Shown here one piece after another: positions 24,088-57,270 of a stretch of DNA of 64,000 bases (positions are counted from its first letter, which is position 1; each line of letters opens with the position of its first letter). The position numbers and the translations under genes are program-made. The notes under the pieces were generated by a model. It ran no database searches. It saw only the letters and a program-made list of their open reading frames with translations, and was not told the origin of the DNA. Source of the DNA: a virus; the UHGV virus genome UHGV-0038498. One strand, 5' to 3'.

Positions 24088-24512
24088 TAGCTTAATCCTA
24101 ATGCTTTACGGCGTTTAAGAGCTTTTTTACGCTTACGCTGAGCACGAGATTGACCTGCTGGATTGGCAATCTTCGTTTTGGTAGCTTTGCGAGCAATTTG
24201 TCTACGTTTTGCTTTAGACAGCCCGGTGGTTTGAAATGCATTACGTTCACGCGTCTTGCGGTCTTTAGTACGTGTAATTTCACCACGAGCAGAAACATGT
24301 TTAACGATGAATTCATTTAGCGGCATATCTTCATTAATAGAAGCTAATGCAATTGCTAAATCAGTTTCATCATCAAGCATATTCTCGACAATTGTATTTA
24401 TATCGTCTTTATTTAAAGCAGAAGACAATTCGTCAAAGCGACCCTGTGCTTCAGGAATAAGTGCTTCGACATTCTCGAGAACTAATTCATGAGTTTCAGG
24501 GATCAGAAGCAT
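24087..24512 (-). CDS. 68: prohead core protein gp68
   Basis: 141-aa ORF with basic C-terminus, position as T4 gene 68. Confidence 0.75.
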
Positions 24513-55736: not shown

Positions 55737-55850
55737 AATTTGTGACAACTGTCACATTAATATCTACTTGACGCGATTATAGGGGTTGAACTGATCACTC
55801 TTCTCTTAATTTCGTGTGAAGACATCTTGATTGTTGGAGTAGGTATTAAT

Positions 55851-56022: not shown

Positions 56023-56373
56023 ATGAAAGGTAATGTTTATTTAGTAGTTCATGATTTGACATTCTATTTTAATCACAATGACACTGTTATTTCTGAACGT
56101 GTAATTAATTTGCTTTATCAACACGCGGATTATGTTTATGTCGAAAACGAATATGGCCATTGGCAATTTCTCAAAAATCGTTCATTTGGCTTAGATGGTT
56201 ACGAATACTTTGAACGTAAAGACCTTTTAGATAAAATTCCGTTATCTACACAATATCAAAATCATAAGTCTTTATATAAATGCCGTCCAATTCGAAATGC
56301 TGAATCTGCGTATGAAGTAATTGATTTATGGCGTAAACGCCGTGAACAGATTGATGCTTTAAAAGAATATTAA
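56023..56373 (+). CDS. hypothetical protein (116 aa)
   Basis: ORF with GAGGAAAA RBS immediately after tRNA-Arg. Confidence 0.5.
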   Translation: MKGNVYLVVHDLTFYFNHNDTVISERVINLLYQHADYVYVENEYGHWQFLKNRSFGLDGYEYFERKDLLDKIPLSTQYQNHKSLYKCRPIRNAESAYEVIDLWRKRREQIDALKEY

Positions 56374-56711
56374 GAAACCGGGTCGCTACCGGTAAGTCGT
56401 CGGACTGATGTTCCCTGAGTAAGGAATTGTGTTAATAAATCTTTATGATTTGTTGATGCCCTCTTACATTACAGCAGAAACGGCGCACAGAATTATCGAT
56501 TCGAGGAAATATCTTTGCCGTAAGCCGAGTAGCGTTTTTGACGGAACGTTCGGATATGGTCGAGATATGGCCTTTTAAAAATATTGAGTAGCGTCAACTG
56601 CTTAATAACCGGGTTCGAATCCCGGCGTTTCGTACAAACACTTGCCTTAGCAGGTGGAACCCGACAAGGTTGCCGCAAGGCTTAGCCCCGACCGAAAGGT
56701 TGGGGCTTTTT
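56374..56711 (+). ncRNA. candidate structured non-coding RNA segment with tRNA-like T-arm, ending at an intrinsic terminator
   Basis: 340 nt with no plausible ORF on the plus strand; several stable hairpins; CCGGGTTCGAATCCCGG T-arm followed by acceptor-like CGTTTCG pairing with upstream CGGAACG; terminator hairpin 56685-56706 plus U-run. Confidence 0.3.
56685..56711 (+). terminator. intrinsic terminator closing the non-coding segment
   Basis: GCCCCGACC-GAAA-GGTTGGGGC + TTTTT. Confidence 0.65.
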
Positions 56712-56713
56712 AG

Positions 56714-56721
56714 TATAAATA
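56714..56721 (+). promoter_or_regulatory. late promoter upstream of the 157-aa internal-protein-like gene
   Basis: TATAAATA directly after terminator, 41 nt upstream of ATG. Confidence 0.55.
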
Positions 56722-56761: not shown

Positions 56762-57235
56762 ATGAAATCATATGCTCAATTTTTAAATGAAGCGGTGTTA
56801 AATGAAGCATCTAGCACCGAAATTCAAGCTGTCGCAAAAGCAGCCATTGCAGCGGGTAAATATTCCTATAAAGATGCTTCTGACGAATCACGATTCCAAT
56901 TTGCTCGCGACATGAAAGCAGAAGGATTTACGGGAAATGCAGTTAGTATGGCATGGAAAAGTTTAGTTGCTACTGGCGCTGCTTTTGCAAAGGCTTCGGG
57001 TAAACCTGCTCCTAAAGCAGATCCTAAAGCTGCACAAGAAAAAAATATCGTTAAAGGAATTATCGCTAAATATGAAGCTATCCTTAAAGAGCTTTTAGTA
57101 ATCAAAACCGAAGGCCAAAAGTTAGCCCGTGCTTATAGTTTCAAAGATAATCCACATGTTCACTCTCTTGAGTATGTTGAAGACATCCAAAAAATTATTA
57201 AAGACCGCATTTGGTCTGCTAAACAAATCAAATAA
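56762..57235 (+). CDS. internal-protein-like packaged protein (157 aa), Ala/Lys-rich
   Basis: N-terminus MKSYAQFLNE-A / VLNE-A resembles T4 internal-protein leader and prohead-protease (L/I)xE sites; late promoter 56714-56721; flanked by terminators. Confidence 0.6.
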   Translation: MKSYAQFLNEAVLNEASSTEIQAVAKAAIAAGKYSYKDASDESRFQFARDMKAEGFTGNAVSMAWKSLVATGAAFAKASGKPAPKADPKAAQEKNIVKGIIAKYEAILKELLVIKTEGQKLARAYSFKDNPHVHSLEYVEDIQKIIKDRIWSAKQIK

Positions 57236-57244
57236 CATTCTTAA

Positions 57245-57270
57245 CCCCAGCCGAAAGGTTGGGGATTTTT
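57245..57270 (+). terminator. intrinsic terminator after the 157-aa internal-protein-like gene
   Basis: CCCCAGCC-GAAA-GGTTGGGG + ATTTTT; near-identical stem to the 56685 terminator. Confidence 0.65.

Follow-up and report, generated by a model that had tools for sequence, protein, structure and literature searches.

The non-coding segment behind a Tequatrovirus tRNA array very probably holds orthologues of the T4 stable RNAs rnaD and rnaC, each with a conserved fold

In the window analyzed here, a 64,000-nt stretch of the viral genome UHGV-0038498, a segment apparently devoid of genes (56374-56711) follows an array of tRNA genes in otherwise gene-dense surroundings, and the question it raises is what it encodes. 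The DNA belongs to a T4-type phage (Tequatrovirus). ARAGORN identified ten tRNA genes on the + strand between 55059 and 56006 (Leu, Gly, Pro, Ser, Thr, Met(CAU), Tyr, Asn, His and Arg), a content unlike that of T4. There is no tRNA-Gln ahead of tRNA-Leu and no segB gene in the tRNA region of the window, which is of the T2/RB3 type bearing the SegB target tRNA-Asn (PMC2330249). The tRNA-Tyr scored only 30.2 bits in Rfam. Between tRNA-Asn and tRNA-His there is a gap of 114 nt (55737-55850) without any ORF or RNA call, containing an inverted repeat, TGTGACA-AC-TGTCACA, near 55742-55757 and a TTGACG at 55768. On the 3' side of the tRNAs the order is a 116-aa ORF (56023-56373), the flagged segment and a 157-aa ORF (56762-57235); the former is phrog_3355, and neither flanking ORF had a Pfam match above threshold. 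The initial annotation had regarded the segment as one non-coding region with a tRNA-like T-arm and a strong terminator at its end, and had proposed that it was either the counterpart of the two stable RNAs of the T4 tRNA region or a tRNA-like RNA, degenerate or non-canonical.

We consider it very probable that the segment, extended to 56370, forms the 3' end of the tRNA operon and comprises the orthologues of T4 rnaD and rnaC, a conserved trailer hairpin and, last, the operon terminator (56370-56711). These small stable RNAs have been known from T4 since the 1970s, and the element is already annotated in T4, RB33, RB7 and RB68; what the present analysis adds is its comparative fold, a corrected acceptor stem, a pair of complementary loops and the breadth of the family. 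A BLAST search of 56374-56711 against phage genomes returned 806 records, the best being RB33 at 99.1%, where the features are annotated as rnaC and rnaD. The matches overlie the annotated rnaD and rnaC of RB33, RB7 and T4, and the annotation tables of RB33 and T4 give the order tRNA-Arg, rnaD (species 2 RNA), rnaC (species 1 RNA). A three-way alignment of the window, T4 and RB33 was collinear from the first bases of rnaD through the terminator, the T4 part being 71171-70908. The boundaries of both RNAs were set by mapping the T4 coordinates through this alignment, so that the mature 3' ends follow the T4 annotation, and the covariance models (CM) that we built matched the same coordinates: rnaD at 56370-56489 (120 nt, + strand; CM R2, 140.7 bits, E = 1.4e-37) and rnaC at 56496-56634 (139 nt, + strand; CM R1, 159.6 bits, E = 1.3e-37), the latter match being the only one for its model in the window. 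The rnaC sequence is identical to that of RB33 and shares 137 of 139 positions (98.6%) with that of T4, while rnaD is 96.7% and 90.9% identical to its RB33 and T4 orthologues, respectively. Folding was far more stable than that of shuffled sequence (z = -6.0 for the whole segment, -4.55 for rnaC and -2.96 for rnaD). Thus, the proposal of a T4 counterpart is borne out by the BLAST matches, the T4 and RB33 annotation, the collinear alignment and the CM matches, and comparison with T4 and other relatives revealed conservation and compensatory changes in both RNAs. The non-coding character of the segment stands as well; its unity does not, as it comprises two RNAs plus a trailer, with rnaD starting at 56370. 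Rfam scans at gathering and E-value thresholds gave no tRNA call and no family for rnaC or rnaD, but only sub-threshold noise, namely tRNA-Sec (56541-56633, 16.6 bits against a gathering score of 47 bits, E = 5.2), isrK and anti-hemB.

The surroundings of the two RNAs agree with this identity. T4 rnaC (NC_000866, 70908-71046) occupies the same place, flanked by rnaD on one side and by the trailer and terminator on the other, with the same fold, T-arm and acceptor-like stem; its two substitutions with respect to the window are both neutral to pairing (G-C/G-U and U-A/U-G). T4 rnaD (NC_000866, 71053-71171) agrees with that of the window in 5' hairpin, basal stem and core motifs. As in the T4 family, rnaC lies on the same strand as the tRNA cluster, and it is separated from rnaD by a 6-nt spacer, GAAUUA (56490-56495, + strand), placed by alignment with the T4 annotation and about as long as the 5-nt spacers found between tRNA and rnaC in other genera. 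The trailer (56635-56683) includes a hairpin, CACUUGC-CUUA-GCAGGUG (56639-56656, + strand), that is kept in 15 distinct trailers, with compensating changes in one of them (L148). A 1-nt deletion at 56660-56662 (CCCC to CCC) was found only in the window, which reads GGAACCCGAC where the 14 other distinct trailers read GGAACCCCGAC. The strong terminator already recognized at the end of the segment is indeed present (56684-56711, + strand); it consists of AGCCCCGACC-GAAA-GGUUGGGGCU plus UUUUU, with a 10-bp stem (56684-56707) of which 7 pairs are G-C followed by the T run, and it is kept in T4 and RB33. A second terminator, CCCCAGCC-GAAA-GGUUGGGG (57245-57264), follows the 157-aa ORF, its stem-loop being almost identical to that of the rnaC terminator; this near-repeat also occurs in RB33 and other loci. 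A T4 late-promoter motif, TATAAATA (56714-56721), lies just past the first terminator, upstream of the 157-aa ORF, and a MotA-box-like middle-promoter motif (TTTGCTTTA, 13 nt, TATGTT) at 56109-56140 within the 116-aa ORF, upstream of rnaD; both are consensus matches only.

The main difference from T4 lies at the 5' side of rnaD. In T4 and RB33 this RNA begins 1-2 nt after tRNA-Arg, whereas in the window, as in T2 and RB69, an ORF of the 116-aa type stands between the end of tRNA-Arg (56006) and the start of rnaD (56370), the TAA stop of the ORF sharing bases with the rnaD start. The ORF is also present in Pinarejo (it is ORF150c in RB69), and absent from T4 and RB33. Since it is inserted exactly at the tRNA-Arg/rnaD junction, a T4-style 3' processing of tRNA-Arg cannot generate the 5' end of rnaD here. 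That rnaD does not adjoin a tRNA in the window is a feature of context and no ground for its exclusion from the family.

The fold of rnaC was derived from 20 distinct sequences belonging to at least five genera (Tequatrovirus, Kanagawavirus, Karamvirus, Moonvirus and Winklervirus), plus IMG/VR and metagenome contigs, which were aligned by MAFFT without fitting to any structure; the consensus was obtained by RNAalifold. It contains 50 pairs, which are 97.9% paired across the alignment and of which 19 show compensatory changes, and the window sequence forms every one. None of 500 shuffles reached the observed values, and sliding the partners by 1-3 columns lowered pairing to 37-47%. The consensus comprises an acceptor-like stem (nt 2-8 with 131-137), an arm of 70 nt (nt 9-78), an 8-nt linker, a 10-bp hairpin (nt 87-112), one unpaired nucleotide and a T-arm (nt 114-130). 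By covariation, rnaC is shown to be a tRNA look-alike in which the 70-nt arm takes the place of the D-arm and the 10-bp hairpin that of the anticodon arm.

The 5' strand of the acceptor-like stem, CGAUUCG (56497-56503, + strand), pairs with CGUUUCG (56626-56632), leaving in mid-stem two U.U mismatches that do not vary in the 20 sequences; its third pair (4-140) is A-U in 11 and G-C in 9 of them, and the other four pairs are invariant. The long arm in the D-arm position (56504-56573, + strand) carries the apical loop UUGACG (56538-56543) and shows compensatory changes in 13 of 24 pairs (helices 2-4). In Karamvirus and Moonvirus its sequence is only 28-35% identical to that of the window with the loop unchanged, and the length of its sides is nearly constant, within 1-2 nt (33-34 and 30-32 nt per side). 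At the tip of this arm CGGAACG pairs with GCGUUUU, 4 of the 5 pairs being compensated. The second hairpin, in the anticodon-arm position (56582-56607, + strand), has 10 bp, 4 of them with compensatory changes, and a loop, CGUCAA (56592-56597), that is invariant in all 20 sequences. The canonical T-arm noted at the outset is present (CCGGG-UUCGAAU-CCCGG, 56609-56625, + strand) and is supported by covariation, its middle pair being G-C in 13 sequences, U-A in 6 and A-U in 1; its loop is canonical in the window and reads UGCAUGC or UGCAUUC in Kanagawavirus and Winklervirus. The 7-nt strand that had been described after it corresponds to CGUUUCG, continued by UA to the end of rnaC (56626-56634, + strand) and followed by ACAA, with no encoded CCA: UACA stands in place of NCCA, and GUACAA is kept in all homologues. 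The reading of the element as a tRNA-like RNA that lacks a D/anticodon domain and CCA was therefore correct, as the acceptor-like stem and T-arm covary, UACA follows and both ARAGORN and the Rfam tRNA model are silent.

The two loops, UUGACG and CGUCAA, are exact 6-nt complements, both invariant in 20/20 sequences, and they probably dock on each other, either within one molecule or between two. As neither loop varies, their pairing lies beyond the reach of covariation. An intramolecular kiss would need the long arm to bend back, the alternative being pairing between molecules. The preservation of arm length while the arm sequence is replaced would fit a kissing contact that fixes the position of the arm tip. 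As hexamers the two sequences are unexceptional in the window (20 TTGACG and 17 CGTCAA against about 16 expected), and none of the other copies falls in the loop of a tRNA. A different contact, between the rnaD hairpin loop GUCGCUA and the UAGCGUC of rnaC, was discarded, as it pairs at only 6 of 7 positions and the rnaD loop is not conserved in W70 and Karamvirus.

For rnaD, 20 distinct sequences were likewise compared with RNAalifold, yielding 23 pairs, 5 of which show compensatory changes, arranged as two hairpins, one at the 5' end and, after it, a long irregular one whose core is invariant. The 5' hairpin, ACCGG-GUCGCUA-CCGGU (56377-56393, + strand), covaries in its closing pair (A-U in 13 of the 20 sequences, G-C in 5 and G-U in 2), and it is retained in W70, KMB17 and KP185 despite a replaced stem sequence. 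In the long hairpin (56396-56488, + strand) the basal stem, GUCGUCG (56396-56402) with CGGCG(C)AC (56481-56488), is invariant, a mid pair changes from U-A to A-U (14:4) and the upper stem is compensated, while the apical arm is variable, comprising at least three unrelated sequence types that each fold as a hairpin. The 3' end reads CACAG in the window, CACCA in T4 and CACCG in most others, so that CCA occurs in T4 only among 21 variants. The string CUGAUG ... GAAAC in rnaD resembles a hammerhead ribozyme; this candidate was rejected, as A9 is missing (CUGAUGU), stem I is absent from the stretch that separates GUCGUCGGA from CUGAUG, covariation (U-A to A-U) places the U of CUGAUG in a base pair with CAGCAG, and there was no Rfam match.

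With regard to known RNAs, rnaC shares with the canonical tRNA (RF00005) a 7-bp acceptor-like stem continuous with a 5-bp T-stem, the UUCGAAU T-loop, and a position and spacing in arrays like those of a tRNA; it probably shares processing by RNase P as well. It differs in having neither a D-arm nor a 5-bp/7-nt anticodon arm, no CCA, two U.U mismatches and a length of 139 nt. A canonical tRNA was thus rejected, with no ARAGORN call and no RF00005 match even at E up to 10, and rnaC is not a decoding tRNA. A tmRNA was also discarded, since neither ARAGORN nor Rfam reported one and the element is without a tag ORF or pseudoknot series. Mimics of the acceptor/T-arm half that engage tRNA enzymes without decoding include the tRNA-like domain of tmRNA, YrlA (Y-RNA-like), the tRNA-like structures of plant viruses and mascRNA. 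None of these has sequence homology to rnaC; the Ro-binding stem of bacterial YrlA is absent from it, and the sole YrlA match of the region falls on true tRNAs.

The distribution of both RNAs extends beyond Tequatrovirus. RB69 (Mosigvirus; NC_004928, L161) has unannotated rnaD and rnaC at 24160-24424 on the - strand, preceded by a homologue of the 116-aa ORF. Within the tRNA arrays of Karam-, Kanagawa-, Moon- and Winklervirus, rnaC is separated by 5 nt from the preceding tRNA and by 5-8 nt from the following one. In some Dhakaviruses, including SHP1 and JS10 (L005, L151, L155, L158), rnaC is cleanly absent and rnaD is joined straight to the same trailer and terminator, and rnaC is retained in L060 and in FB (L152), which is labelled as a Dhakavirus; such presence or absence suggests a module that phages acquire or lose as a unit. 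Elements similar to rnaD start 0-12 nt past the 3' end of a tRNA at seven loci (CM, 23-86 bits), in Karam-, Kanagawa-, Moon- and Winklervirus and also, with an identical core, in a phage of the Vequintavirinae. The latter, Escherichia phage W70 (L153), is not T4-like and carries its rnaD-like RNA (86 bits) straight after tRNA-Met. Upstream of that RNA we observed an 82-nt tRNA-like element (acceptor GCGCGGG/CCCGCGC, T-arm GAAGG-UUCGAGU-CCUUC) with no ARAGORN call, the two RNA elements lying at 1318-1399 and 1492-1592. A scan of bacterial and archaeal genomes with an rnaC pattern gave no true rnaC and 2 chance matches. In IMG/VR a 15-base pattern, GTAGCGTCAACTNCTT, found mostly chance matches, with about 10 real ones in 120, and longer patterns were then used; the metagenome scan gave 11 loci, of which one (L142) was a chance match. 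Given the outcome of the bacterial and archaeal scan and the linkage to tRNAs across phage genera, rnaC and rnaD are old, phage-restricted companions of tRNA genes.

How the two RNAs are produced may be outlined from their anatomy. They would be co-transcribed with the tRNAs on the + strand and excised by the tRNA-processing machinery of the host. The 5' end of rnaC would be set by RNase P, reading the 7-bp acceptor-like stem stacked on the 5-bp T-arm; for this enzyme, a stacked acceptor stem and T-arm make up the minimal substrate. According to the T4 literature of the 1970s-80s, the species 1 precursor is a substrate of RNase P and RNase III and is also able to self-cleave at UpA/CpA. Both 3' ends might result from an endonuclease cut in the spacer or trailer followed by trimming by a 3' exonuclease; such trimming is to be expected as a stable basal stem ends 1-2 nt before each of the 3' ends annotated in T4. 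We infer the roles of RNase P and the exonuclease from the anatomy and from that earlier T4 work. The papers covered by our literature search contained nothing on the processing of species 1 RNA. In T4 the tRNA cluster is transcribed as one precursor of ~1.75 kb that ends after species I (PMC2330249), and RNAC and RNAD appear as late RNAs on northern blots (PMC9697503); the northern evidence for a stable accumulation of rnaC of ~140 nt comes from T4 only (PMC9697503).

No function has been demonstrated for rnaC and rnaD in about 50 years (PMC3014915, PMC9697503). Among the explanations that we weighed, we tentatively favor a trans-acting role of rnaC as a mimic of tRNA. Such a mimic would occupy or recruit a tRNA-binding factor of the host or the phage, thereby tuning host-dependent fitness. 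A T4-like phage that was adapting to E. coli ECOR34 acquired an identical rnaD SNP in three independent lines (PMC12685909), which is a hint of a trans, host-dependent role. Two observations limit this idea: a partner reading a true T-loop would not be universal, since the T-loop is non-canonical in Kanagawa- and Winklervirus, and rnaC is dispensable in some Dhakaviruses, where it is entirely absent. The mimic is preferred to a purely cis-acting module, which is itself doubtful and according to which both RNAs would form the structured 3' end of the tRNA operon, blocking 3' exonucleases, giving entry sites to RNase P and other endonucleases and ending transcription, with the stable RNAs as long-lived by-products without a job of their own. 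The constant tie to tRNA genes (a distance of 0-12 nt from the preceding tRNA for rnaD-like elements, tRNA-like spacing for rnaC), the location at the operon end beside the conserved trailer hairpin and terminator and the single precursor of the T4 cluster (PMC2330249) all agree with a cis role. However, a pure processing signal would need neither invariant complementary loops nor a 70-nt arm of conserved length nor an rnaD core that is invariant across genera; moreover, rnaC stands in mid-array rather than at the 3' end in other genera, and the convergent rnaD SNP in host adaptation points to a phenotype (PMC12685909).

That the RNAs are a decayed tRNA gene or another functionless relic, kept by linkage to the tRNA cluster, is very unlikely, even though rnaC has no CCA, D-arm, 7-nt anticodon loop or tRNA call and is missing from some Dhakaviruses, and mutants of T4 with deletions in the tRNA region are viable on laboratory hosts. 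Selection on the RNA fold is implied by the 19 compensated pairs and the 97.9% pairing over at least five genera, and the invariant loops and conserved arm length persist despite an arm identity of 28-35%. Even less probable is a degenerate, class-II-like tRNA whose acceptor stem would be formed by an internal CGGAACG (56542-56548) with CGUUUCG (56626-56632), the pairing put forward in the initial annotation. The internal site does exist, 77 nt upstream of CGUUUCG; in the window 7 pairs can form, one being G-U, and the fragment 56536-56637 can take this fold (-31.9 kcal/mol). The weak tRNA-Sec match in Rfam (56541-56633) lies over it, and an analogue of it is the call of ARAGORN on the homologue in L133, where part of rnaC is taken for a 96-nt tRNA-Phe (in another record, G9062, rnaC is labelled 'tRNA-OTHER'). 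The alignment speaks against this stem, as 9 of 20 homologues, all of non-T4 type, fail to form pair 49-140 (G-U to A-C and similar), two further pairs are broken in 3 sequences and the helix shows no compensatory change. CGUUUCG covaries instead with the 5' end of rnaC, CGAUUCG, its true partner, and CGGAACG with the GCGUUUU of the tip helix; in addition, both the full-length MFE structure and the alignment consensus use the 5'-terminal stem. The comparative data thus rule out the internal acceptor pairing.

The least probable explanation is that the segment encodes small proteins. The statement that it has no sense-strand ORF needs correction, as there are ORFs of 49 aa (GTG start, 56429-56578) and 33 aa on the + strand, in addition to one of 61 aa on the - strand (56493-56678), but it holds in that no + strand ORF is gene-like or conserved in frame. 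A genuine short ORF was looked for among the relatives and none was conserved. Despite the presence of such ORFs, of an AAGGA 3 nt ahead of the GTG of the 49-aa ORF and of the CDSs that automatic annotation places over the region in many phages ('hypothetical protein' in many T4-like GenBank records, e.g. T2 PV648363 and Pinarejo), we rejected either the 49-aa or the 61-aa ORF as a gene, since the start and length of the former shift among phages (GTG, TTG or ATG; 39-49 aa), the + strand frame is lost in 4 of 18 relatives (L060, L124, L126, L152), a C-to-U change in T4 creates a premature TGA stop at a position that stays paired as G-U, RNA pairs survive the R-to-H and R-to-C changes, the arm in Karam-/Moonvirus has its sequence replaced and its RNA pairs kept, and the 49-aa ORF spans the rnaD/rnaC boundary, that is, two separate RNAs in the T4 annotation.

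Returning to the trans-acting mimic, a joint reading of both RNAs can be formulated, unlikely as it is to hold in full: two uncatalogued and widespread RNA families, in which rnaC would be a tRNA mimic closed or dimerized by its kiss and rnaD a shared element of tRNA 3' trailers. Under this joint reading rnaC might serve as a decoy or an adaptor for a host factor directed at tRNAs, such as a tRNA-cleaving defense nuclease or a processing enzyme, its 6-bp loop-loop contact holding a closed shape or a dimer, and rnaD might be a structured 3'-trailer element common to Straboviridae and Vequintavirinae. If this were true, the 50-year-old question of function would become testable by means of loop-swap mutants and panels of hosts and defense systems.

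In summary, the apparent gap in a gene-dense genome corresponds to two known RNA genes, which most T4-like GenBank records leave unannotated or hidden under spurious 'hypothetical protein' CDSs. Few phage non-coding RNAs have been known for as long as rnaC and rnaD without a function being assigned to them, and the present work provides experimental handles on these two, namely folds backed by covariation, the correct acceptor stem of rnaC, its invariant complementary loops, its occurrence in tRNA arrays and a relative of rnaD in another subfamily. Furthermore, the comparative results would justify the creation of Rfam families for both RNAs.
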